IMG/VR virus record: IMGVR_UViG_3300029567_000182
Coordinates: 1 to 12,027 of that record
Source of the DNA: a virus
Lineage: Duplodnaviria; Heunggongvirae; Uroviricota; Caudoviricetes
DNA: 12,027 nt
Reading direction: 5' to 3' (one strand)
Below are positions 1 through 12,027 of the stretch, piece by piece. The translations under genes were made by a program, and so were the position numbers. The notes below the pieces were generated by a model. The model was not told where the DNA came from, ran no database searches, and saw nothing but the letters and a program-made list of their open reading frames with translations. Within the stretch, counting starts at the first letter, position 1. Every line of letters begins with the position of its first letter.

Positions 1-1039
1 CCCGCCGTACCTGTTCGGCATAAAATGCCCAGTCCCACGGCTGCGCGCTAAACCCGCCTTGCTGCTTATCGATAACCGCCTGTATGGAGGGTAATTCATC
101 GCTAGCACGTTGACGCGCCGCTGGAACAATTTCCCGCATAAAGTTGAGTGCTGCTTCAGGTGTTTTTGCCATCTGATCGGCGATTTTCCATGCGGCATAA
201 TGAGGAAAACCAAGCAGTTTCGCCTGCTGTGCGCGAATCTCTACCAGACGTTGAATGATAGCGCGGGTATCATTGCCATCATTTTTTTCCGCTCGCGTCC
301 AGCCCGCAATAAACAGTTTTTCACGCGTCGCACGATCGCGCATTTCGGCAAGCGCCGGTTGTTGGGTGGTATTCAGCAGCGGAATCAGCCATTTGTTATC
401 CAGACCTTTCTCGCGAGCCGCCTCTGCCGCCAGCGCAATCTCTTGCTCACTCATTCCTGCCAGCTGCGCGATATCGTTCACAACCAGACCGCCGGATTTA
501 TTTGCTGCAAGTAACCGCTGGTTAAACTGGCTGGTCAGGGTCGCAGCTTCTGTATTCAGTACTTTTAATTTTGCTTTATCAGCTTGCGCAAGTTTGGCTC
601 CGGCAAGGACAAAACGTTGATGAATAACCTCCACCAGGCGGATGGATTCACTATCAAGCCCCAGGGATTCACGGCGCTGCCAGACAGCATCTACCCGCGC
701 GAATAATTCACCGTTCAGATAGATATCATTAGCCAGTTCCGCCAGTTCAGCGGAAAACTGTTCATCAAGACGCTGTAATTCATCATTGGTATGCGCCGCA
801 GTCATCGCAAAAAAGACGCTGGTAACGCGGGTAAGTAATTCTCCGCTTTGTTCCAGTGCCAGAATAGTATTGTTGAAATCAGGCGTTTGCGGGTTAAGCG
901 CGATGGCAGCAATTTCTGCCCGCTTTTGCTGCATTCCCTCATCGAATGCCGGGCGATAGTGATGATTGGCAATTTGATCAAAATGAGGAGCCAGATACGG
1001 CAGTGTGCTTTGCACAAGGAAAGGATTCATTGTTGTCAT
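1..1039 (-). CDS. dcp: dipeptidyl carboxypeptidase II (peptidase M3 family), N-terminal 346 codons; 3' end lies beyond the window start
   Basis: Reverse-strand translation from ATG at 1039..1037 reads MTTMNPFLVQSTLPYLAPHFDQIANH..., and at the window edge ...DKQQGGFSAQPWDWAFYAEQVRR, matching the Dcp N-terminus as I recall it. The frame is open to position 1. It is absent from the ORF track only because no stop codon lies inside the window. Confidence 0.92.
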   Translation of the reverse strand, partial: MTTMNPFLVQSTLPYLAPHFDQIANHHYRPAFDEGMQQKRAEIAAIALNPQTPDFNNTILALEQSGELLTRVTSVFFAMTAAHTNDELQRLDEQFSAELAELANDIYLNGELFARVDAVWQRRESLGLDSESIRLVEVIHQRFVLAGAKLAQADKAKLKVLNTEAATLTSQFNQRLLAANKSGGLVVNDIAQLAGMSEQEIALAAEAAREKGLDNKWLIPLLNTTQQPALAEMRDRATREKLFIAGWTRAEKNDGNDTRAIIQRLVEIRAQQAKLLGFPHYAAWKIADQMAKTPEAALNFMREIVPAARQRASDELPSIQAVIDKQQGGFSAQPWDWAFYAEQVRR

Positions 1040-1175
1040 TTTCTTCTCCTGAACGCGAGGTGTTCCATAGCGTAGGCTTACTGATAACGGAGTGCAATCT
1101 TGCAAACCAGTATTACCCGCTCTTAAGCATCACGTGCTATGTTATTGACACACAAAAGCGTTGAGGAACAGTGAG

Positions 1176-1922
1176 ATGATCGTTTTAGTAACTGGAGCAA
1201 CGGCAGGTTTTGGTGAATGCATTACTCGTCGTTTTATTCAACAAGGGCATAAAGTTATCGCCACTGGCCGTCGCCAGGAGCGGTTGCAGGAGTTAAAAGA
1301 CGAACTGGGAGATAATCTGTATATCGCCCAACTGGACGTTCGCAACCGCGCCGCTATTGAAGAGATGCTGGCATCGCTCCCTGCCGAGTGGTGCAATATT
1401 GATATCCTGGTAAATAATGCCGGCCTGGCGTTGGGCATGGAGCCTGCGCATAAAGCCAGCGTTGAAGACTGGGAAACGATGATTGATACCAACAACAAAG
1501 GCCTGGTATATATGACGCGCGCCGTCTTACCGGGTATGGTTGAACGTAATCATGGTCATATTATTAACATTGGCTCAACGGCAGGTAGCTGGCCGTATGC
1601 CGGTGGTAACGTTTACGGTGCGACGAAAGCGTTTGTTCGTCAGTTTAGCCTGAATCTGCGTACGGATCTGCATGGTACGGCGGTGCGCGTCACCGACATC
1701 GAACCGGGTCTGGTGGGTGGCACCGAGTTTTCCAATGTCCGCTTTAAAGGCGATGACGGTAAAGCGGAAAAAACCTATCAAAATACCGTTGCATTGACGC
1801 CAGAAGATGTCAGCGAAGCCGTCTGGTGGGTGTCAACGCTGCCTGCTCACGTCAATATCAATACCCTGGAAATGATGCCGGTTACCCAAAGCTATGCCGG
1901 ACTGAATGTCCACCGTCAGTAA
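1176..1922 (+). CDS. ydfG: NADP-dependent 3-hydroxy acid dehydrogenase, short-chain dehydrogenase/reductase (SDR) family, 248 aa
   Basis: ORF 1161..1922 in the track starts at a TTG; the in-frame ATG at 1176 (MIVLVTGATAGFGE...) preceded by GAGG is the more likely start. Classical SDR features: TGxxxGxG Rossmann motif (VTGATAGFG), NNAG, and catalytic Y-x3-K (YGATK). Confidence 0.92.
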   Translation: MIVLVTGATAGFGECITRRFIQQGHKVIATGRRQERLQELKDELGDNLYIAQLDVRNRAAIEEMLASLPAEWCNIDILVNNAGLALGMEPAHKASVEDWETMIDTNNKGLVYMTRAVLPGMVERNHGHIINIGSTAGSWPYAGGNVYGATKAFVRQFSLNLRTDLHGTAVRVTDIEPGLVGGTEFSNVRFKGDDGKAEKTYQNTVALTPEDVSEAVWWVSTLPAHVNINTLEMMPVTQSYAGLNVHRQ

Positions 1923-1930
1923 TTTTTATA

Positions 1931-1956
1931 CCCGGCGTAACTGCCGGGTTATTGCT
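1931..1956 (+). terminator. putative intrinsic terminator downstream of ydfG
   Basis: Hairpin cccggc-gtaact-gccggg (1931-1948) immediately after the ydfG stop, followed by a T-rich but interrupted tract (ttattgctt). Confidence 0.45.
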
Positions 1957-2010
1957 TGTCACAAAAAAGTGGTAGACTCATGCAGTTAACTCACTCACAA
2001 GCAAGAACGA

Positions 2011-2697
2011 ATGACCGTCGAAACGCAACTTAATCCCACACAGCCTGTCAATCAGCAGATTTATCGTATTCTTCGTCGCGACATTGTCCATTGCCTGATT
2101 GCACCAGGCACACCGTTGTCGGAAAAAGAAGTTTCTGTTCGTTTCAATGTGTCACGCCAGCCGGTTCGTGAAGCCTTTATTAAACTGGCGGAAAACGGCC
2201 TGATTCAAATTCGTCCGCAGCGTGGCAGCTACGTCAACAAAATTTCCATGGCCCAGGTGCGAAACGGCAGTTTTATCCGTCAGGCCATTGAGTGCGCGGT
2301 GGCGCGTCGGGCGGCGAGCATGATTACCGAAAGCCAGTGCTACCAACTGGAACAAAATCTTCACCAGCAACGCATTGCCATTGAGCGCAAGCAACTGGAT
2401 GATTTTTTTGAACTTGATGACAACTTCCATCAACTCCTGACGCAGATTGCCGACTGTCAACTGGCGTGGGATACCATTGAGAACCTGAAAGCGACCGTTG
2501 ATCGCGTGCGCTATATGAGTTTCGACCATGTTTCTCCACCAGAAATGCTGTTACGCCAGCATCTTGATATTTTCTCTGCCCTGCAAAAACGTGATGGCGA
2601 TGCGGTAGAACGTGCAATGACGCAACATTTGCAGGAAATCAGCGAGTCCGTGCGCCAGATCCGCCAGGAAAACAGCGACTGGTTTAGCGAAGAGTAA
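2011..2697 (+). CDS. ydfH: GntR-family transcriptional regulator (FadR-like subfamily), 228 aa
   Basis: ORF 2011..2697. N-terminal winged-helix region typical of GntR regulators (IYRILRRDI...[24 protein letters not shown]) and an all-helical C-terminal effector domain. Matches E. coli YdfH (also called RspR) as I recall it. Confidence 0.9.
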
Positions 2698-2705
2698 TTC
2701 ATTTA

Positions 2706-2737
2706 CTCTCATCCCATCCGGGATGAGAGGCTTTTCC
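2706..2737 (+). terminator. rho-independent terminator downstream of ydfH
   Basis: Perfect 10-bp stem ctctcatccc / gggatgagag with a 4-nt loop (2706-2729), followed by gcttttcc. Confidence 0.7.
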
Positions 2738-2773
2738 CCCCACCTTACGGCTCATGCATGCATCAAAAAAGAT

Positions 2774-2825
2774 GTGAGCTTGATCAAAAACAAAAAATAT
2801 TTCACTCGACAGGAGTATTTATATT
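2774..2825 (+). promoter_or_regulatory. putative ydfZ promoter with an FNR/CRP-type site (TTGATcaaaAACAA, 2780-2793) about 41.5 bp upstream of the inferred start point; -10-like TATTTA/TATATT at 2816-2825
   Basis: TTGAT-N4-AACAA is a 9/10 match to the FNR consensus TTGAT-N4-ATCAA. It overlaps TGTGA-N6-TCAAA (2774-2789), which is CRP-like. The spacing to the AT-rich -10 candidates fits class II activation. Flanking A-tracts. Assigned by motif only. Confidence 0.5.
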
Positions 2826-2874
2826 GCGCCCGTTACGTGGGCTTCGACTGTAAATCAGAAAGGAGAAAACACCT

Positions 2875-3078
2875 ATGACGACCTACGATCGTAACCGTAA
2901 CGCAATCACCACTGGCAGCCGTGTTATGGTTAGCGGCACCGGTCACACTGGCAAGATCCTGTCGATTGATACTGAAGGTCTGACCGCTGAGCAAATCCGC
3001 CGCGGAAAAACCGTAGTTGTTGAAGGTTGTGAAGAGAAACTGGCACCTCTGGACCTGATTCGTCTCGGCATGAACTAA
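2875..3078 (+). CDS. ydfZ: small conserved protein YdfZ (67 aa; annotated in E. coli as a putative selenium-binding protein)
   Basis: ORF 2875..3078 with a strong Shine-Dalgarno (AGGAGAAAACACCT-ATG). Sequence [32 protein letters not shown]... recognised as YdfZ. Confidence 0.88.
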
Positions 3079-3085
3079 GTGTGTG

Positions 3086-3116
3086 AATGCCGCCGATGGC
3101 GGCATTGCTTTTTTTA
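3086..3116 (+). terminator. rho-independent terminator of ydfZ, overlapping the stop codon of the convergent ydfI
   Basis: Stem aatgccgcc / ggcggcatt (3086-3106) followed by gcttttttt (T7 run, 3109-3115). The ydfI stop codon (TAA, 3114-3116 on the minus strand) sits in the T-tract. Confidence 0.75.
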
Positions 3117-4574
3117 CTTCACGGAATATTTCGCCACGGTCGCTTTCGCGCCATGCGCTAATAAAGACAAGTACGCTTCCGTCACTTTTGCAGTAAACAA
3201 GCTATTGTCTGGCAAATCATCACCAAAGATTGCCTTAATCGCCAGCAATGACTGGACGCGCGCTTTCCCTTCGGCACTACTTTGTACAGCCTTCTGAATA
3301 ACAGGTAACAGTGGGTCACTGATTTCTATCGGATTTCCCTGTTCATCAACACCACCGACATAACGCATCCAACCCGCGACGCCCAGCGCCAGCAGATCGA
3401 ACTTGCTGTCATGCGCCAGATGCCAGCGAACAGAATCCAACATCCGCTGTGGCAATTTCTGGCTACCATCCATCGCAATCTGCCAGGTTCGATGACGTAA
3501 CGCCGGGTTGCTATAGCGTGCAATTAATCGGTTAGCGTAATCTTGCAAATCAACGCCCTGCACTTTCAGCGTCGGCGCTTGTTCCTGCAACATCAAGCCA
3601 TACGCCGCATGACGATAATGTTCATCTTCCATACAGTCATTAATGTGCTGATATCCAGCAAGATAACCCAGATACGCCAGGAATGAATGACTGCCGTTGA
3701 GCATGCGCAACTTCATCTCTTCATAAGGCAGTACATCGCTAACCAGTTCTGCTCCCGCTTTTTCCCATTCCGGACGTCCGGCAACAAAATTATCTTCTAT
3801 TACCCACTGGCGGAAAGGTTCACAGGCAACGCCAGCAGGATCGCGCACACCGGTAAGTTGTTCGATTTTCGCAAGAGTATCCTCTGTCACTGCGGGCACA
3901 ATACGGTCCACCATTGTTGATGGGAAAGTCACGTTATCTTCGATCCATTGTGCCAGTTTTACATCAACGGCTTGCGCGTAGGAAGTGACAACGTCACGCA
4001 TAACATGACCGTTTTCTGGCATGTTGTCACATGACATAACGGTAAATGCGGGAAGTCCTGCCGCTTTACGGCGAGCCAGCGCCTCAACAATCACCCCTGT
4101 TGCTGTTTTCGGCTGGTGGGGATTTTGCACGTCGGCAGCGACCATCGGGTGATCGAGCATTAACTGTCCGGTCGCCGGAGAGTGGAAATACCCTTTTTCG
4201 GTGATTGTCAGAGAGACAATCGCAATTTGCGGTTCACACATCGCAGCCAGCACGGTTTCTAAGCCATCTATTTGTACGTGCAAGGCTTTTTTAACGACGC
4301 CAACGACGCGAGCCGTCCACGCGTCGGCCGACATTTCCGCAACGGTATAAAGATTATCTTGCTGTTGTAAATCGGCAATTTGCTGTTCGCCGCCGATTAA
4401 GTTGACCTCATAATATCCCCAGTCACTGAAATGTTCCGTAGCAAGAATATCGGCATACACGCCCTGATGCGCACGGTGAAATGCACCAAAGCCTAAATGA
4501 ACAATTCTTGGGGCCAGGTTATTACGATCATAAACAGGGAGTGTCGCTTTTGCTGATAACAAATTATTTCCCAT
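3114..4574 (-). CDS. ydfI: mannitol dehydrogenase-family oxidoreductase (mannonate/fructuronate reductase-like), 486 aa
   Basis: ORF 3114..4574. N-terminal dinucleotide-binding region ([16 protein letters not shown]) and overall length typical of long-chain mannitol dehydrogenase / UxuB-like enzymes. Recognised as YdfI. Confidence 0.9.
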
Positions 4575-4620
4575 AACAATTCCTTAAATATAAATATGGC
4601 AAGCTATATGTTTTGTTATA

Positions 4621-4654
4621 TGAATAAAAATCCCCTCTCCGGTAAGAGAAGGGA
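4621..4654 (-). terminator. possible intrinsic terminator downstream of ydfJ (minus strand)
   Basis: Imperfect stem tcccctctc / gagaaggga (4631-4654, one mismatch), followed on the minus strand by TTTTTATTCA. Lies between the ydfJ stop (4663) and the ydfI start (4574). Confidence 0.4.
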
Positions 4655-4662
4655 TTAAGGGT

Positions 4663-5946
4663 TTACAGACTTCTGGAAGGTTGCGCAGCTCTTACAACAC
4701 GCGGTTGATCTTCCGCAGCGTCTTCCAGCGCACTTAAATCACGGTCTTTCACCTCTGGCATTTTCAGCGCAGAGATTAAACCAATCACTGAATATGCCAT
4801 GATCATAATGGCGATCGGATACCAGGATTCCGTCATGGTGCAGAAAATACCCGCCAGGATAGGACCAAAACCGGAAGCGATAAGACCACCAATTTCTTTA
4901 GAAATAGCCATCCGGGTAAAGCGGTTTTTACAGCCGAACATTTCTGCCATGGTAATGTTTTCCAGAGCAAATAATCCCAGCACCGCACAGTTATGAATCA
5001 CAATCAGTGCAACCATAATGGTGCTCGGGGCATAGCTTTTATCTACAATGATAGAAAGCATTGGCCATGCCAGCACAATCGCGGAGGTATTCATAATAAT
5101 ATACGGGATCCGGCGACCAATTTTATCGGATAACCAACCAAGGAACGGAATGGTCATAAAGCCGAGAATCGAACTAATCATCAATGCATCTGTTGGAATT
5201 GCTTTGTTAAACAATAACGTCTGCACTAAATAGCCTGCAAGGAAAGTCTGAATTAACCCGGAGTTACCCGCCTGACCAAAACGCAGCCCTGTTGCCAGCC
5301 AGAAGGATTTGCTCTGGAACATGCTACCAGCAGGTGCAGGTTTTGCTGTGGGTTGGTTGCTGTCATTAACCTTCTCAAAGACCGGGCTTTCTTTCAGATT
5401 CATACGTAACCAGATAGCAAAGACCATCACGACAACGCTCGCCAGGAACGGTATACGCCATCCCCACGCCAGCAGTTCCTCTTTACTGAGAATGAAGAAC
5501 ACAAAGGCCCAGATTGCCGTTGCGCTCAAGGTTCCGCAGTTAGTTCCCATAGCTACAAATGAGGAGATAATTCCGCGCTTACCTTTTGGTGCATATTCCG
5601 CCAGCATCGTACCGGCACCGGAAATTTCCGCACCTGCACCCAACCCCTGAATAATACGCAGCGTCACCAGCAAGATGGGGGCAAAAACACCAATCTGTGC
5701 ATAGGTCGGTAACACACCAATTAAGGTGGTACAGATCCCCATCATGGTGATGGTAATAAAGAGCACTTTTTTACGCCCTATTCTGTCGCCCATTTTGCCG
5801 AAAATAAATGCTCCGACAATACGCGCCACATAACCTGCACCGTAGGTTCCCATTGCCAAAATTAACGCCATTGCCGTTGATGATTCAGGAAAAAATATTT
5901 CATGAAACACTAACGCTGCGCCGAGCGAATATAACTGGAAATCCAT
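4663..5946 (-). pseudogene. ydfJ: 5'-truncated MFS transporter gene (metabolite:H+ symporter family, ShiA/ProP/KgtP-like); remaining ORF 427 codons
   Basis: ORF 4663..5946. The signature G-x-M-x-D-R-x-G-R-K (GKMGDRIGRKK) lies only ~50 residues from the ORF start. The ORF begins MDFQLYSL..., which aligns to the conserved W-Y-D-F block that sits ~35-40 residues into ShiA/ProP, so the N-terminal cytoplasmic segment and the start of TM1 are missing. No Shine-Dalgarno precedes the ATG (upstream is aaaaaatatctatgaatt). Prophage DNA begins immediately upstream. Confidence 0.75.
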
Positions 5947-6164
5947 AATTCATAGATATTTTTTACCATCCTATGGATTTTTGGGCGTTTTCTAAGTTTT
6001 TTCAGATGGTTGTATTTTTTCTAAAAACTCCTGATCTCGATTTTGCTGTTTGTCTGAGGCCTTTTTATGTCCCATATATGCCCCAAGGTGCCCCATGTAA
6101 ATCCAATTCAACTCAAAGCATCCCTGTTCAATATTTTTACAAGGGGCTTGCATATCAGTGTTTT

Positions 6165-6734
6165 TTATTGCGTAACGTCAAACGCTCGGATTGAGCGTAA
6201 ATCCTCCAGATTATTCAGTTCATCCTTCATCTCCCGCTGCCGACGATAAATCTCATTATTGCGATCGACCTGTGCCTGCGCCATTGCTGCTGCCAGTTCT
6301 TCCAGTTCCTGCATTGACAGCGTCACCGGCTGATTATCTGCATCACCCCACGCAAGGGCGGTTCGTGCCGTATCAGATTTTGCGGCCATTACCACCGGAT
6401 AAAGACGGGCCATTGAGTCGGGGCCAGCATTCCAGGTACGACCGTTCCATTCGAACGTGAACGCCTTCGCCTCCTGTTCTGCTCGCCACGCCTCGATTTC
6501 CATCTTTTTGGCATCTTTTGCCGCTGCGATAAGTTCAGGTGTAATGGTGAACGGGGCGATTTCGCCCCATTTGCCGCTCTGTAACTCTTCCCAGATACGC
6601 TGGCCTGTTTCATCCATGTCTTCCGGCGATGCTGTGTAAGGCAAATACTCTTCCACACCGAAAAACAACACCTCACAATCCACAGCGCCATTTTCCAGCC
6701 TGCATATCTTTTTAATATCTTTTATTTTCATCAT
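6165..6734 (-). CDS. putative tail fibre assembly chaperone (189 aa), not of the lambda Tfa type
   Basis: ORF 6165..6734. Its ATG is 3 nt downstream of the stf stop (TAG-CTG-ATG-ATG), implying translational coupling. It occupies the position of tfa in lambda-like phages. The C-terminal half (FTFEWNGRTWNAGPDSMARL...W..DADNQPVTLSMQELEELAAAM...) resembles the conserved pattern of DUF4376-type tail-fibre-assembly proteins as I recall it. Function assigned mainly by context. Confidence 0.6.
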   Translation of the reverse strand: MMKIKDIKKICRLENGAVDCEVLFFGVEEYLPYTASPEDMDETGQRIWEELQSGKWGEIAPFTITPELIAAAKDAKKMEIEAWRAEQEAKAFTFEWNGRTWNAGPDSMARLYPVVMAAKSDTARTALAWGDADNQPVTLSMQELEELAAAMAQAQVDRNNEIYRRQREMKDELNNLEDLRSIRAFDVTQ

Positions 6735-6737
6735 CAG

Positions 6738-9041
6738 CTACCGTACCCGCACAAATAACCCCACAATAGTGTTGTTGTCAGCCATCAGTACACCACCCGA
6801 ACCAGATAACGCTCTGTATGCCCCGGGCAGGAAAAGCGAATATGACCGTCCACTGACATAACAAGTTGGTGTGATTCCTTTTACGCCAGCGCCTGTCGCC
6901 ACCCCTCCCGAGAATTCCACATGCCCCAGCCTTGAACCTGGATAAATCTTTCCTCTCTGCAGAGTTCTGGTCATATCGCTGTCTGATGTACCGTAATAGG
7001 CTGCAAGAATAATATTACCGACTTCCGGGGCCCGGCTATCACTCCCAAGCAGACTGGCAATCCCGCTTCTGTTTATGTAGCCTGAGTCCCAGGGGCGCAG
7101 GGACGGGTTTGTGGGATTTGCATCAAGAACTGTTCGATAGACATCCCCATACTGACCATAAAATGTCAGTAATTTTCTTTTGCCCTGATGTTCTGCCTGA
7201 CTGTATACCCTGTCAGAAATTTTAATTTCGAGCACTCCGGTAAAACCAATATCCGGAATGATGGGATTAAAATCCGGATGTGTTCTCTGCTCCACAAGGT
7301 AGCGCCCTGGCGGCGTCTGCATACACCAGGTTACAAGCTCAGACTGACCATCACTGGCACTAAAATATTTAATCGTCGAAGTCAGTGCTCCAAAACCCAA
7401 TGTCCCCGGTAATGCTCCTCTCCCTTCAGTGCGATCATAAATATTACTTTGTAATGCCACGCTATCTGAGATTTCAAGCACCTGCCGCATATCTTCGGAT
7501 GTGAACTGCGCCAGCAGTGAGCGGGCTTTTGCTGACAACGGAGACAGCGCAATATTCCCTCCGGTATTAAAATACAGAAGGTTATCTGCCCGTACTGTTA
7601 ATTTGCTAATCGCTGTTAAAATATCGCTAAGCGGCTGTTTACCTGCCAGTGCGTTAGTGACCGTCGTCGCAAAGTTTGGGTCATTACCCAGCGCCGCTGC
7701 CAGTTCGTTCAGCGTGTCCAGGGCTTCCGGGGACGAGCCAACCAGCGCAGCGAGCAGTTTGCGGACAAACGCCGCATTCGCCATCTCCAGTCCGACCGCA
7801 TCATCCGGTGGGGTTGGTGTGGTTGGCGTACCGGTGAATGCCGGGCTGTCCAGCGGCGCTTTGGTTTTCGTCTCGTCCATGACGATTTTGACGGCTTTTG
7901 GGGTTGCAGCAAATGCTTCAGATGTGCTGTTGGCAGCACTACTGAGCTGTACTATTCCCTTTTTCGTTGTACTCGCATCCTCAAGCCCCACGGCGGATGC
8001 GATATCCTCTGCCCGCTTTGCCGCTGTCTCGGCTCGGGTTGCCGCGGACTCTGCTGTACTTTTGCTCCGCTCAGCCTCCGCCGCACTGTCTGCCGCCTCT
8101 GTCGCCTTCGTAGCCGCAGCGTTGGCGGACGTCTCTGCAGCAGTTTCTGAATCTGCTGCAGCTGAGGCGTTCTGTGCTGCCGCTGTTTCAGAAGACCTTG
8201 CGTTCGTCTCGGACGTTTTTGCCGCCTTCGCGGAATTTCCTGCCGCCGTTGCCGAGGAGGCTGCACTACTGGCGCTCGAGGCTGCACTCGTTTCTGATGA
8301 TTTTGCCGCCTCTTTTGAAGCCGCCGCATTCCGTGCTGAAGTGGCTGCTTCTGACGCTTTCGTGGTCGCGGTGGATGCAGAAGTGGCTGCTGATTGTTGT
8401 GACGCTGCCGCATTCGTTTCAGACGTTTTCGCGGCACCGGCACTGGTGGCCGCCGCGCTTTTTGAGGACTCTGCTGCGGCAGCACTTTTTGATGCTTCAG
8501 TGGCCTTTGCTGATGCCGTTCCTGCGCTGGAAAAAGCCTCCTGAGCCGACGTCGCGGCCTGTCCGGCTGACGTTCTGGCTGCGCGTGCTGAGTCTGCAGC
8601 ATCAGTCGCATGGGTTGCCGCCTCACGGGCTGATGTGCTGGCATCGCTGGCTGACTTCTTCGCGGCTGCCGTGTTCTGTGCCACTGCGGACGCGTTACGC
8701 GCCACCTCTTCCACCATCAGTTCAAAGCGACGCAGTGCCTCCGGACGGGCATCATCCTCCGTCATGGCACCGAGAAAATCATTCAGCGTACCGGGTTGAG
8801 AATCTTCATACACGGTGATGGTCCCGGCATGTGACGGCGGGAACCCTTCCACCAACAAAATAACGCTGTACTGACCGTACTCAACGTCCATACTGTAACG
8901 CCCGGCTTCATCCGGATTTTCTGAGGCCAGCGTGTTCACCACCACCGTGGTGCTGTTACGTTTTGCTTTCAGCTGGATTGTGCAGTTCTGTACCGGTTTT
9001 CCTGTGCCGTCTTTCAGTACACCTGAAATCTTTACTGCCAT
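6738..9041 (-). CDS. stf: side tail fibre protein, lambda Stf family, mosaic (767 aa from ATG 9041; the ORF track uses GTG 9047)
   Basis: N-terminus MAVKISGVLKDGTGKPVQNCTIQLKAKRNS... matches lambda Stf. Long Ala/Ser/Thr-rich low-complexity segment (residues ~115-350). Conserved tail-fibre motif GIVQLSSAANSTSEAFAATPKAVK...LDSPAFTGTPTTPT (7812-7958). The lambda-like block LNELAAALGNDPNFATTVTNALAGKQP ends at 7632; the C-terminal ~297 residues (6741-7631) are unlike lambda Stf. Confidence 0.9.
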   Translation of the reverse strand: MAVKISGVLKDGTGKPVQNCTIQLKAKRNSTTVVVNTLASENPDEAGRYSMDVEYGQYSVILLVEGFPPSHAGTITVYEDSQPGTLNDFLGAMTEDDARPEALRRFELMVEEVARNASAVAQNTAAAKKSASDASTSAREAATHATDAADSARAARTSAGQAATSAQEAFSSAGTASAKATEASKSAAAAESSKSAAATSAGAAKTSETNAAASQQSAATSASTATTKASEAATSARNAAASKEAAKSSETSAASSASSAASSATAAGNSAKAAKTSETNARSSETAAAQNASAAADSETAAETSANAAATKATEAADSAAEAERSKSTAESAATRAETAAKRAEDIASAVGLEDASTTKKGIVQLSSAANSTSEAFAATPKAVKIVMDETKTKAPLDSPAFTGTPTTPTPPDDAVGLEMANAAFVRKLLAALVGSSPEALDTLNELAAALGNDPNFATTVTNALAGKQPLSDILTAISKLTVRADNLLYFNTGGNIALSPLSAKARSLLAQFTSEDMRQVLEISDSVALQSNIYDRTEGRGALPGTLGFGALTSTIKYFSASDGQSELVTWCMQTPPGRYLVEQRTHPDFNPIIPDIGFTGVLEIKISDRVYSQAEHQGKRKLLTFYGQYGDVYRTVLDANPTNPSLRPWDSGYINRSGIASLLGSDSRAPEVGNIILAAYYGTSDSDMTRTLQRGKIYPGSRLGHVEFSGGVATGAGVKGITPTCYVSGRSYSLFLPGAYRALSGSGGVLMADNNTIVGLFVRVR
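7992..8699 (-). repeat. low-complexity, quasi-repetitive coding DNA (Ala/Ser/Thr-rich shaft region of stf)
   Basis: Recurring GCN/TCN/ACN-rich strings encoding SAA/TSA/AAK-type repeats. Stop-free in several frames on both strands, which explains the overlapping 347-, 230- and 214-aa ORFs in the track. Confidence 0.7.
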
Positions 9042-9048
9042 ATTCACC

Positions 9049-9078
9049 CCACAAAAAAGCCCGCCTGAACCGGCGGGC
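9049..9078 (-). terminator. intrinsic terminator downstream of lom, abutting the stf start
   Basis: 7-bp GC-rich stem gcccgcc / ggcgggc with loop tgaacc (9059-9078), followed on the minus strand by TTTTTTGTGGG (complement of 9049-9058). Confidence 0.65.
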
Positions 9079-9105
9079 TGTCATAACACTGTGTTACCTG
9101 GCTAA

Positions 9106-9705
9106 TCAGAATTTATAACCGACACCCACGATGAAACCGTCAGTGCGCCAGTCACCACTGCCGGAGCCTTCATAAGCAATATCAATGGCCACGGATTCGG
9201 TCGGGTTAAACTGCACGCCTGCCCCCCACGCCAGAGACGTGTTGCTGTGGCGACTGTCATCACTTCCGGTCAGCACATCGTGCTTTTTCCCCTTGTTGTC
9301 AGTTACGCGGATATAATCTCCGGAGAAAGTCGAAACACGGCTGTAAGCCATACCCGCCATCGCATACGCGCTGAACCATTCATTCACGCGCACAGAGGGC
9401 CCCGCCATCACGCTGAACCAGCGGTTACGCACAGAATCTTCATGCCAGCGGGTATCGCTGTAACGGGTCAGCTGGCGATTCTTGTCTCCTGCATAGCTGA
9501 ATGACGTCACCAGCCCCAGTGTGTCCGTAAACTCATAACGGTATTTCACGTTAATCCCGTTCAGATTATCGCTGCCGGGAGCGTTCGTTGAGGCATGGAG
9601 ATACCCCGCGCTCAGCGTGGACTGATGTTCTGCTGCACTCGCTGGCGTAGCAGCGGCGACCTGCCAGACTACTGCGGACAAAATAACAGCACATAATTTA
9701 CGCAT
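9106..9705 (-). CDS. lom: Lom outer-membrane beta-barrel protein (Ail/Lom/OmpX/PagC family), 199 aa
   Basis: ORF 9106..9705 with Shine-Dalgarno GAGAGGTAATT-ATG. Signal-peptide-like N-terminus (MRKLCAVILSAVVWQVAAATPASA), C-terminal ...GVGYKF typical of OM barrels. Near-identical to lambda Lom as I recall it (EHQSTLSAGYLHA.TNAPGSDNLNGINVKYRYEFTDTLG...). Confidence 0.93.
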   Translation of the reverse strand: MRKLCAVILSAVVWQVAAATPASAAEHQSTLSAGYLHASTNAPGSDNLNGINVKYRYEFTDTLGLVTSFSYAGDKNRQLTRYSDTRWHEDSVRNRWFSVMAGPSVRVNEWFSAYAMAGMAYSRVSTFSGDYIRVTDNKGKKHDVLTGSDDSRHSNTSLAWGAGVQFNPTESVAIDIAYEGSGSGDWRTDGFIVGVGYKF

Positions 9706-9726
9706 AATTACCTCTCGCTTTTCTGC

Positions 9727-9753
9727 AATAAAAAAGGCGCCATTTCTGGCGCC
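9727..9753 (-). terminator. intrinsic terminator between J and lom
   Basis: Stem ggcgcc / ggcgcc with loop atttct (9736-9753), followed on the minus strand by TTTTTTATT (complement of 9727-9735). Lies between the J stop (9773) and the lom ribosome-binding site. Confidence 0.6.
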
Positions 9754-9772
9754 CGTATCTGGGTTATAAAAT

Positions 9773-12027
9773 TCAGCTAATCGTGATGCCTGCAGTGGCT
9801 TTCTTCATCACCACAACCAGCAAATCGCTGATACTTGCTGTGGGATACCAGTTATTTACCAGCCACGCTGACACCGAAAACTCCAGCGTCATGTGACCGT
9901 GACCAGCCGGCATATCAATAACACCACTGTAAATCAGCGTATTATCCAGCGCGGTACGGTTATAAATTTCAGCGCCGTTTTTCCGTACGATCAGACGGCA
10001 TGAGGAGTAAATATCAGTATGCTCTTTCTCATGTTTAGCGCCACTGAATGCCACCGCCGGAATAACAATCTGCCGGTCAAACGGCTGATCGTCATAAACC
10101 CTGACGGTAATGGTTCCTGATGGCCACCGCTCCGGTGCACGGGAGTCCCGGGGGAAAGCTTTGCCCACTGTTTTAACGAGATCGCCTTCAATCTGGTTCG
10201 CGGACAGTTTTCCCAGAACCCGACAGTTCTCGTTAATCGTGACGTTGTTGAGCGTCCCTGAGTTCGCATTCACGTTACCGCTGATATCGGCATTTTTCGC
10301 CGTCAGCCGCCCGTCCGGTGTCAGGGAAAATGCCGGAGGATTACCGCCGCTGGTAATGGTCGGAGCCGTCAGGCGTTTCAGGAACACGTCGTTCATGAAT
10401 ATCTGATCGCCCTGACCAACAAACATTGGTCTTGTGTTGCCATTAGACGGATCAATAAACGCGATACGGTTAGCGGCAACCAGGAACTGGCTCAGTTTGC
10501 CTTCCTCCGTGTCCTCCATGCTGAGGCCAAGCCCCGCGACATAATGCTTACCGTCTTCGGTCTGCTCAATTTTGACGCCCCACATGGCATTCCATTTATC
10601 GTTGGCGTCTTTCCACTCTTTCGAAAACTGATCCAGTCTGCTGGCGTTATCTTCCGTCAGGTCGACTTTTTCCAGCAGCTCCTTGCCGAGATGGGATTCG
10701 GTTATCTTGCCTTTGAAAAAATCCAGGTAACCTTCCGCATCATCGCTCGCCCGACCGACGGCCTCCACGAATGCCGATTTGCCAACGGTGTTCACACTGC
10801 GGATATAAAAGTAATAATCATGGCCCGGTTTGATATTGATACTGGCGGCTATCCAGTACAGCCCCGCGCCAAGGTAGCGGGCTGTGGTTTCAACCTGCCT
10901 GATATCGGTAATCCGCGTTTCCGAGAACCAGAACTCAAACTGTACCGTCGGATCATAAACCTCAAGATGCGGCGTGGCAGTTATCTGAAAATAGCCCGGC
11001 GTCAGCTCAATCCGCGACGGTGCTACCGGTGCGGCAATCCTGAACGATACCGACGCCGGATCGCCCTGCTGTCCCCACGCATTTACCGCCCGGACTGTCA
11101 GCGTGTACCGTCCCAGCGCCAGTTGCGTGAAGCGGTATGTGGTTTCCGTCGTCCGGGCCGTGCTGACCAGCCGCTCACTGCCGTCATCCGCTGCCACGGT
11201 CAGGCGAAGCAGGAAGCTCACGCCCTTCACCACCTTCGGCGTGTCCCATCGCGCCAGCACCTGATATTCCCCGCTGTCTGCAGTGACTTCGGCGGTCAGA
11301 TGCTGCACTGCTGGCGGCGTGACACCATTCACCGTGCCGCTCTGGTCGCCGTCAAAGTGCGCCCCGTTATCCACGATGGCCTCTTTTTCCGGTACATGCT
11401 GCACGGCGGTGATGGCATACGTGCCGTCGTCGTTCTCACGAATACTCACGCAGCGGAACAGGCGCTGGCGCAGCGTCGGCAGCTTCAGCCCCCACACGCT
11501 GTATTCAGCAACACCGTCAGGAACACGGCTCACTTTCACCTTCACGCCGTCGGTGACGGACTGAACCTCCACGCTGACCGGACTCCCCTGCCCGTCAACC
11601 AGGCTTATCAGCGTGGTGCCGGAAGATGGCAGCGTGATTTCACGGTCGAGCGTCAGCGTCCGGGTCTGGCTGTTTACCGCCAGCACGCGCCCGCCGATGC
11701 TGATACCGGCATAGTCATCATCACAGATTTCAATGACATCGCCCGGCACATGGCGAAGCCCTTCTGCGCCCACGCTGAAGTCCACGGTCTGCGTTTCCAG
11801 CAGTTCTGTTTTAATCAGCCACAGCCCGGCGCGGTGTGCCTGCCCCCGGCTGGTACAGCCAAAGGCATCCATCTTCGTGACGTTACGACCGTAACGGGCA
11901 ATGGCCTGCGTATCCTCCACAAGCTCTGTCGCCGTCTCCCAGCCGTTGTTCGGGTCAATCCAGTTCACCTCAACGGCATTATGGCGGTCTTTCAGGGCGC
12001 TGAAGCTGTAGCGGAACGGCGCGCCAT
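9773..12027 (-). CDS. J: tail tip / host specificity protein J (central tail fibre), C-terminal ~750 codons; the 5' end of the gene is beyond the window end
   Basis: The track ORF 9773..11968 starts at an internal Met. The frame stays open to 12027 and reads ...[47 protein letters not shown]..., recognised as lambda J. Contains the fibronectin-III-like and C-terminal receptor-binding region. Confidence 0.93.

Follow-up and report, generated by a model that had tools for sequence, protein, structure and literature searches.

Gene content of the window and the host-prophage boundary

The DNA analyzed here (hereafter the window, namely the entire 12,027-nucleotide stretch, positions 1 to 12,027, of the IMG/VR virus record IMGVR_UViG_3300029567_000182) begins with an Escherichia coli chromosomal segment, recognizable from the open reading frame (ORF) table, Pfam matches and annotated relatives, in which the gene order is dcp'-ydfG-rspR-ydfZ-ydfI-ydfJ', and continues into the right end of a lambdoid prophage (Table 1). 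The two parts meet inside the transporter gene ydfJ, of which the window holds only the 3' portion, ydfJ'. In the alignment with the uninterrupted ('empty') site of a prophage-free relative, host identity extends up to position 5948, and unrelated, phage-specific DNA starts at 5949; the ATG of ydfJ' (5944-5946) is 2 nt away from this junction. These positions bear out the initial annotation, made from the sequence alone, which proposed that a prophage was integrated inside ydfJ and had left a 5'-truncated reading frame that begins where the prophage ends. We are highly confident that the window segment 5938-6087 is the right-hand attachment site (attR) of a lambda-like temperate phage that employs the Qin/'PPydfJ' integration module.

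The extent of the truncation is apparent from strains that lack a prophage at this site. In strain 1070/13, ydfJ is located 57 bp downstream of rspB and encodes a protein of 455 amino acids, which starts with MTIEKHERSTKDLVKAAVSGWLGTALEF and continues as MDFQLYSL...; a 455-codon ydfJ is also found beside rspB at the empty sites of RM9387, ST-131, CFT073, O2:H6 and KOr021. Compared with this form, the 427-amino-acid product of ydfJ', with the N-terminus MDFQLYSL, lacks 28 N-terminal codons, close to the approximately 30 predicted initially. The remaining protein is a member of the metabolite:H+ symporter (MHS) family within the major facilitator superfamily (MFS), with a TIGR00883 score of 453.7 bits (NCBIfam cut-off, 443.45) and matches to the Pfam families MFS_1 (E = 1.6e-37) and Sugar_tr; the complete N-terminus of the family, in which transmembrane helix 1 starts before the E-(W/F)-(Y/M)-D-F motif, is not present. 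The matches to the TIGR00883, ShiA and ProP profiles start at profile positions 7, 37 and 40, respectively, compared with 1, 12 and 22 for intact YdfJ, which agrees with the suggestion that the segment up to the W-Y-D-F block of such transporters is absent. The cut falls at the E-F-M-D-F block of YdfJ, which we take to be the counterpart of the family motif E-W-Y-D-F, and residues 1-28 include the first half of transmembrane helix 1, judging from hydropathy and the family alignment.

The ATG of ydfJ' is the native internal Met29 codon and was not created by the fusion. In the ydfJ sense, the sequence preceding it reads ...GGATGGTAAAAAATATCTATGAATT-ATG, with no Shine-Dalgarno-like sequence within 15 nt upstream in the window, as had been noted initially, and with an in-frame TGA two codons upstream of the Met29 ATG, so that the phage DNA cannot extend the ORF. 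In all occupied genomes fetched, PGAP labels the ORF as 'incomplete; missing N-terminus', the sole exception being the curated K-12 record.

That record is the principal argument for the view that ydfJ is not truncated at all, with a native 427-amino-acid ORF starting at MDFQLYSL and a prophage located in the intergenic region upstream: the K-12 RefSeq entry lists b1543 as an ordinary 427-amino-acid coding sequence, 'putative transporter YdfJ', and gene callers return the same ORF. However, the 455-codon ORF is present in every empty-site genome fetched, the 200-bp stretch across the bacterial attachment site (attB) is uninterrupted in 2009 genomes, all carrying the longer gene, the 28 absent codons turn up at the opposite prophage end, the MHS, ShiA and ProP profiles align further upstream in intact YdfJ, and Citrobacter and Buttiauxella sequences run through the site with attB-like sequence. 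No prophage-free genome was found in which ydfJ natively starts with MDFQLYSL and is preceded by DNA matching 5949-6164 of the window. The longer gene in empty-site genomes, the displaced codons and the profile starts refute the view of a native 427-amino-acid gene, to which we assign a negligible probability.

Table 1. Features of the window in map order (amino acids abbreviated aa)
Feature	Position	Strand	Description
dcp'	window start		by the annotation of relatives
ydfG	1161-1922	+	
rspR/ydfH	2011-2697	+	GntR regulator, repressor gene of rspAB
ydfZ	2875-3078	+	
ydfI	3114-4574	-	mannitol-dehydrogenase-family enzyme
Intrinsic-terminator-like hairpin	4629-4656	-	directly after ydfJ
ydfJ'	4663-5946	-	codons 29-455, 427-aa MFS transporter ORF
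Attachment core	5938-5948		11 bp; GAAATCCATAA on the + strand, TTATGGATTTC in the ydfJ sense; holds the Met29 ATG
Phage-side arm of attR	5949-6087		139 bp; kept in all ydfJ-integrating prophage types examined
dinI-like remnant	~6006-6096	+	approximate, transferred from the PGAP annotation of near-identical relatives
Tail-fiber assembly-type protein (DUF4376)	6165-6734	-	Pfam E = 1.7e-15
Side tail fiber	6738-9047	-	769 aa; Pfam phage_tail_N E = 5.8e-72; Ala/Ser-rich repetitive middle
lom (Ail/Lom outer-membrane protein)	9106-9705	-	Pfam Ail_Lom E = 2.5e-119
J, 3' part	9773-12027	-	gpJ in the annotation of relatives; 5' end beyond the window

The attachment core and the phage arm

The host-phage boundary, placed by the alignment to the prophage-free relative, coincides with an 11-bp core that is the only stretch identical in attB of 1070/13, in attR and the left-hand attachment site (attL) of strain AREA_497, in attL and attR of the Qin prophage of K-12, and in attR of the window; a few flanking positions also match across these sites. 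The attB site lies within ydfJ codons 28-31 (TT ATG GAT TTC), in agreement with the proposed location of the attachment site in the coding sequence of a host transporter.

On the phage side, the core is followed by a 139-bp arm that is shared, to a variable degree, by different prophages at this locus. Identity to the window over the arm is 78.6% for K-12 Qin, 85.6% for strain 2011C_4247, 90.6% for O157 FRIK2533 and 97.9-99.3% for AREA_497 and 120899. This homology stops abruptly at ~6087, and identity to Qin and O157 drops to 29-42% beyond 6088. The segment 5949-6094 (146 bases) also matches 19 records of phages converting to production of Shiga toxin (Stx) 2a, at 90.5%. The search for a free sequenced phage with the right end of the window returned none, the matches being limited to the shared arm (in the Stx2a-converting records) and to parts of the tail-fiber assembly gene. 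A conserved arm followed by variable cargo fits the arm of a phage attachment site (attP) with putative binding sites for accessory proteins. A repeat search of 5930-6170 for arm-type integrase sites detected nothing but a 9-nt inverted partial copy of the core and an imperfect direct repeat of 10 nt. The former is a perfect match (5972-5980 versus 5939-5947, TATGGATTT / AAATCCATA), is located 24 nt into the phage arm and is retained by window-type arms, whereas the Qin arm deviates from it at two positions; because it is not conserved in Qin, it is treated as unproven and could be either a core-type integrase site or a chance match. In the 400-base interval 5801-6200, which spans the junction, the G+C content falls to 39%.

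The opposite prophage end in related genomes

The displaced 5' fragment of ydfJ and the repeat of the core were located in relatives, AREA_497 and K-12, rather than in the source genome. In these relatives, the opposite prophage end consists of rspB, ydfJ codons 1-28, the directly repeated 11-bp core and then phage DNA. In AREA_497, rspB and ydfJ' are separated by a complete ~44-kb prophage that has int, xis, early, lysis, head and tail genes and ends with J-lom-stf-DUF4376-dinI' like the window. Its integrase, encoded next to attL, is a 431-amino-acid tyrosine integrase (Arm-DNA-bind_2, E = 7e-24; Phage_integrase, E = 2e-18), and int is followed by the gene of a DUF1233 excisionase. In K-12, ynfP (b4534, 36 amino acids) comprises the 28 displaced codons and reads through the core into phage DNA (MTIEKHERSTKDLVKAAVSGWLGTALEFMDFKSHAC, i.e. 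MTIEKHERSTKDLVKAAVSGWLGTALEFMDF+KSHAC), and the fusion peptide at attL of AREA_497 is similar. The int region of AREA_497 aligns with the intQ pseudogene region of K-12 at a mean DNA identity of ~92%, and the annotated 'cryptic prophage Qin' feature of K-12 starts at the base that corresponds to the first base of the core. The expectation that the first codons and the promoter of ydfJ would be found at the other prophage end holds for the codons, which are present beside rspB; the promoter in question is probably that of rspA.

Two other genomes could not be used for this purpose. In E. coli PSS-15 (positions 10486-13044 of the retrieved locus L004), the tape-measure gene is cut by a copy of the insertion sequence (IS) IS100 and joined to a truncated paaJ, with paa, tynA and fea genes thereafter, so that the ydfJ prophage has lost its left part through an IS-mediated rearrangement or inversion. 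For strain 120899, in which the junction is 100% identical to that of the window, the fetched 50-kb stretch is full of IS elements and stops short of attL.

Site occupancy and the ancestral gene cluster

Occupancy of the site was surveyed in 5426 complete E. coli genomes with a 200-bp empty-site probe across attB and an occupied-site probe that consisted of 100 bp of host DNA and 100 bp of the phage arm, at a threshold of at least 80% coverage. The empty site was detected in 2009 genomes (37%), including CFT073 and ST131, and a junction like that of the window in 3170 (58%), including K-12, BL21, O157:H7 and enterotoxigenic strains; most other genomes match the empty-site probe in two separate places, as expected of a split site. 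Such recurrence speaks against a chance origin of the junction. At least three types of cargo follow the shared arm: ynfT-ydfK-pinQ in Qin, an intact dinI-like gene with genes for DUF1076-domain or NleC proteins in Shiga toxin-producing E. coli (STEC), and a dinI remnant with tail-fiber genes in the window. The notion of a recurrently used site is thus well founded. The host alleles concerned can be almost identical: ydfJ' of the window differs from the empty-site allele of 1070/13 at 2 of the 1284 nt, and that of BL21 at 1 nt, and therefore the prophage was gained or lost recently in some lineages.

The same data bear on another explanation of this diversity, namely, that a resident, vertically inherited Qin-like remnant was reassembled through homologous recombination with newly arriving lambdoid phages, so that the site was remodeled rather than re-used. 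Lambdoid prophages are mosaics, the int region (~92%) and the 139-bp arm are common to the Qin, O157-type and window-type prophages and could have served as recombination anchors, recombination events and inversions that involve prophages at ydfJ and at other loci have been documented (PMC8112680), and the IS100-linked rearrangement in PSS-15 is located inside a ydfJ prophage. However, the arm adjoining the core is only 78.6% identical to that of Qin, yet the adjacent host DNA differs at just 12 of 1284 positions, the polymorphic occupancy among alleles 1-2 nt apart implies recent gain or loss by site-specific recombination, and complete prophages with intact int and xis do occur at ydfJ. We consider remodeling a possible but rather unlikely account of the window, although one route does not preclude the other.

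In empty-site genomes, rspA, rspB, ydfJ and ydfI follow each other on one strand, and this arrangement, together with rspR, is ancestral. The cluster encodes a dehydratase-type protein, a Zn-dependent oxidoreductase, the MHS transporter, a mannitol-dehydrogenase-family enzyme and a GntR regulator, and looks like a single sugar-acid utilization locus that is split in ~58% of the complete E. coli genomes, with rspR and ydfJ-ydfI separated by the prophage from rspA-rspB. A simple scan of the 57-bp spacer between rspB and ydfJ revealed no consensus promoter and no terminator-like site, a site of the latter kind being found immediately after ydfJ, and promoter scans gave 1-2 consensus matches, fewer than in shuffled sequence. 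There are weak indications that ydfJ may be co-transcribed with rspAB, and the promoter from which ydfJ has been displaced is probably the RspR-repressed rspA promoter. A literature search on the involvement of the rsp/ydf cluster in L-gulonate catabolism yielded nothing usable, and no such claim is made.

Beyond E. coli, a 19-nt string comprising host DNA and the core occurs in Citrobacter and Buttiauxella, in most cases with an attB-like continuation. In Buttiauxella gaviniae ATCC 51604 (NZ_LXEP01000003.1, 2820-8000), the string is contained in an MFS ORF of 432 amino acids (2820-4118), apparently the ydfJ ortholog, which starts at the equivalent Met. The sequence departs from that of other Buttiauxella right after GAAATCCATAAATTCA, and the ORFs that follow include one for an Acyl_transf_3 protein and one for a Tail_spike_N protein; the arrangement resembles the end of a different prophage, without lambda-type tail genes, at the same intragenic site in another genus. 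The ydfJ-Qin junction was also detected in a 31-kb contig (SMXE01000224.1, ~2203-2221) of a metagenome-assembled genome labeled 'Caldithrix sp. CR04bin15', where ~140 bases are identical to E. coli ECDA1023; this contig is almost certainly E. coli contamination.

Fate of the truncated gene

We infer that the transporter function of YdfJ is lost through truncation. The ORF nevertheless is intact in 11 of the 11 occupied genomes sampled, and this is compatible with the idea that ydfJ' is still expressed, by read-through from the tail operon or from an internal promoter, and translated from Met29, with selection keeping the frame open. Decay was assessed on 17 copies of the 1284-nt segment, 11 of them from occupied and 6 from empty-site genomes, and all are open. 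The ratio of non-synonymous to synonymous polymorphism (pN/pS) amounts to 0.025 for the occupied alleles, compared with 0.028 for the intact ones, and K-12 and BL21, both of which bear Qin, differ by 11 synonymous and no non-synonymous codon changes; taken at face value, the pN/pS of ydfJ' argues against a long neutral decay. In addition, a scan found no terminator-like site on the minus strand between the tail genes and ydfJ', the hairpin downstream of the gene being the only one on that strand in the scanned region 4500-6900, and ydfJ is among the genes with altered expression upon DicC induction in K-12.

Against continued use of ydfJ' stand the missing Shine-Dalgarno sequence, the in-frame stop two codons upstream and the loss of half of transmembrane helix 1 along with the region of the conserved N-terminal motif of the family. 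The pN/pS test has low power and is confounded by recombination with intact alleles that are under selection. Because occupied and empty-site alleles are interleaved, some being only 1-2 nt apart, most of the differences among occupied alleles probably arose before integration or entered through recombination. The variants private to a single allele, with synonymous to non-synonymous counts of 8:4 in occupied and 15:4 in empty-site genomes, show no significant difference (Fisher p = 0.68). A simpler explanation of the open frame is that integration was recent and that occupied alleles recombined with intact ones. Retention of function by ydfJ' appears unlikely, and the specific scenario of read-through or internal transcription with selection on the frame seems to us quite improbable; marginally less credible still is the broader proposal that ydfJ' is a live gene, kept intact in most E. 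coli because it is expressed from within the prophage as a shortened transporter or a transporter fragment, or that the prophage is a reversible switch which restores the rspAB-ydfJ-ydfI sugar-acid cluster.

The window allele carries a private Met-to-Val replacement at position 5502 (codon 149 of ydfJ', residue 177 of the full-length protein; AIWAFVFFIL versus AIWAFMFFIL), which is absent from the 16 other alleles compared and is one of the four private amino-acid variants in the 11 occupied alleles.

Prophage genes in the window

The phage part of the window has the lambdoid gene order J, lom, side tail fiber and tail-fiber assembly, all on one strand and ending at the attachment site. The DUF4376 gene is the last intact prophage gene before attR, and exactly the same protein is encoded on 22 public contigs, with the same context of tail genes, ydfJ' and ydfI in all four places that were displayed. 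Between this gene and the junction, a 'DinI family protein, incomplete' pseudogene is annotated in PSS-15, AREA_497 and 120899, and the O157:H7 prophages at ydfJ possess an intact 80-amino-acid DinI-like gene (locus L008, 1830-2072) whose ATG lies right where the conserved arm ends; the version in the window is diverged or deleted after ~6087. An ORF at 5973-6194 on the plus strand was rejected as a gene, having no Pfam match.

The middle part of the fiber gene (7400-8900) is an Ala/Ser/Thr-rich low-complexity region, in which the G+C content reaches 62% and the AT skew falls as low as -0.48; it gives rise to long spurious ORFs in other frames (7501-8544, plus strand; 7952-8644, minus strand); the fibers of relatives are annotated as truncated in this region. 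The closest draft contig, which is collinear, differs from the window by 96 mismatches, many of them within the side tail fiber gene. The match to strain SE11 covers 84% of the window, at an identity of 96.2%. Pfam J domains are present in the 1131-amino-acid J protein.

Prophages at ydfJ and related systems

The ydfJ attachment site of Qin-family lambdoid prophages is already known from PGAP, the K-12 annotation and published work. Qin was reported to be integrated at the 5' end of ydfJ, with the loss of the promoter and 28 N-terminal codons (Ramisetty and Sudhakari 2019, PMC6379469), and to separate rspR from its target rspAB (Shimada et al. 2021, PMC8249747). A lambda-like prophage, PP_SE11-3, was described between ydfJ and rspB in SE11 (Oshima et al. 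2008, PMC2608844), and attP, attB, attL and attR of 'PPydfJ' were determined, on the basis of an attP amplicon, in a study that also noted the occupancy of ydfJ in many E. coli, K-12 included (Nakamura et al. 2021, PMC8112680).

The closest characterized counterpart is Qin (Kim) of K-12 MG1655 (1632277..1652745; ydfJ b1543, ynfP b4534, intQ b1579), which shares with the window the identical 11-bp core, the same truncated 1284-nt ydfJ' ORF, a homologous phage arm (78.6% over 139 bp) and, judging from the AREA_497 relative with its ~92% nucleotide identity to intQ, the same integrase lineage. Qin, however, is a 20-kb decayed remnant with int cut by IS2, and its genes next to attR are ynfT-ydfK-pinQ-tfaQ-stfQ, whereas in the window the arm is followed by the dinI remnant and a lambda-like tail end (DUF4376, the 769-amino-acid fiber, lom and J), without homology to Qin beyond 6087. 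The statement, in the initial annotation, that K-12 carries Qin at this same position with different terminal genes, including an invertase-type segment, thus proved accurate. The curated K-12 RefSeq record (locus L006, 9003-10286 and 30729-30839) lists both halves of the gene, ydfJ b1543 and ynfP b4534, as protein-coding, which is inconsistent with PGAP flagging the same ydfJ ORF as a pseudogene elsewhere.

The 'PPydfJ' lambda-like prophages of STEC (O157:H7, O26:H11 strain 11368 and O177:H25; PMC8112680) occupy the same locus, and the O157 arm is 90.6% identical to that of the window. Next to attR, they carry an intact dinI-like gene and genes for DUF1076-domain or NleC proteins (type III effector loci), often in tandem clusters; none of this effector cargo and no tandem features are found in the 6 kb of phage DNA in the window. 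PP_SE11-3 resides at the same locus and has a lambda-like architecture, but no sequence duplication was listed for it and the site was placed between genes (PMC2608844); the core and the intragenic position are clearer here. Recombination by a tyrosine integrase at a short core inside a coding sequence is likewise characteristic of Rac (5' end of ttcA) and of Stx phages (wrbA, yehV/mlrA, sbcB and yecE) (PMC8112680, PMC6379469). Rac alters the N-terminus of TtcA (PMC6379469), whereas ydfJ, with the in-frame TGA two codons before Met29, receives no replacement 5' end from the phage and is simply cut.

Integration at ydfJ and its implications

Lambda-type site-specific integration at ydfJ is well supported, and for the window it can be inferred from relatives. 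In this reaction, attP would recombine with attB in ydfJ codons 28-31 through a tyrosine integrase that has an N-terminal arm-binding domain, and an excisionase would assist the reversal. The expected products are attR, in the window, with the phage arm, the core and ydfJ codons 29-455, and attL, outside the window, with rspB, ydfJ codons 1-31 fused to a few phage codons, and then int and xis. Insertion of the prophage, which measures ~44 kb in the relative AREA_497, splits the collinear rspA-rspB-ydfJ-ydfI and strips ydfJ of the transcription signals and the start context that lay upstream, as well as of the first half of transmembrane helix 1. Precise excision would be predicted to restore an intact ydfJ that reads ...GAATTTATGGATTTCCAG....

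Several observations weigh against this reading. The window stops inside gene J, so that attL, the integrase and the completeness of the prophage lie outside the view, and the public contigs with the same tail-fiber assembly protein that were read are likewise interrupted within the prophage. Among the complete E. coli genomes, none is a close match over the entire window; the best alignment reaches 92% coverage at 94.7% identity. Nakamura et al. (PMC8112680) reported an att site of 18-19 bp, compared with 11 bp of perfect identity and imperfect flanks here.

The core sits in the most conserved motif of the transporter family of YdfJ, and this location probably explains both the stability of the site and its reuse by different phages; the ydfJ attachment site can be considered a textbook example of a phage core embedded in the part of a protein family that is conserved best. 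The 139-bp arm together with the core is a handy marker for typing site occupancy. Beyond correct annotation, the finding has little import: the 427-amino-acid 'YdfJ' of the window, of K-12 (b1543) and of UniProt-style entries represents the 3' portion of a prophage-interrupted gene and should not be taken as the full-length transporter.

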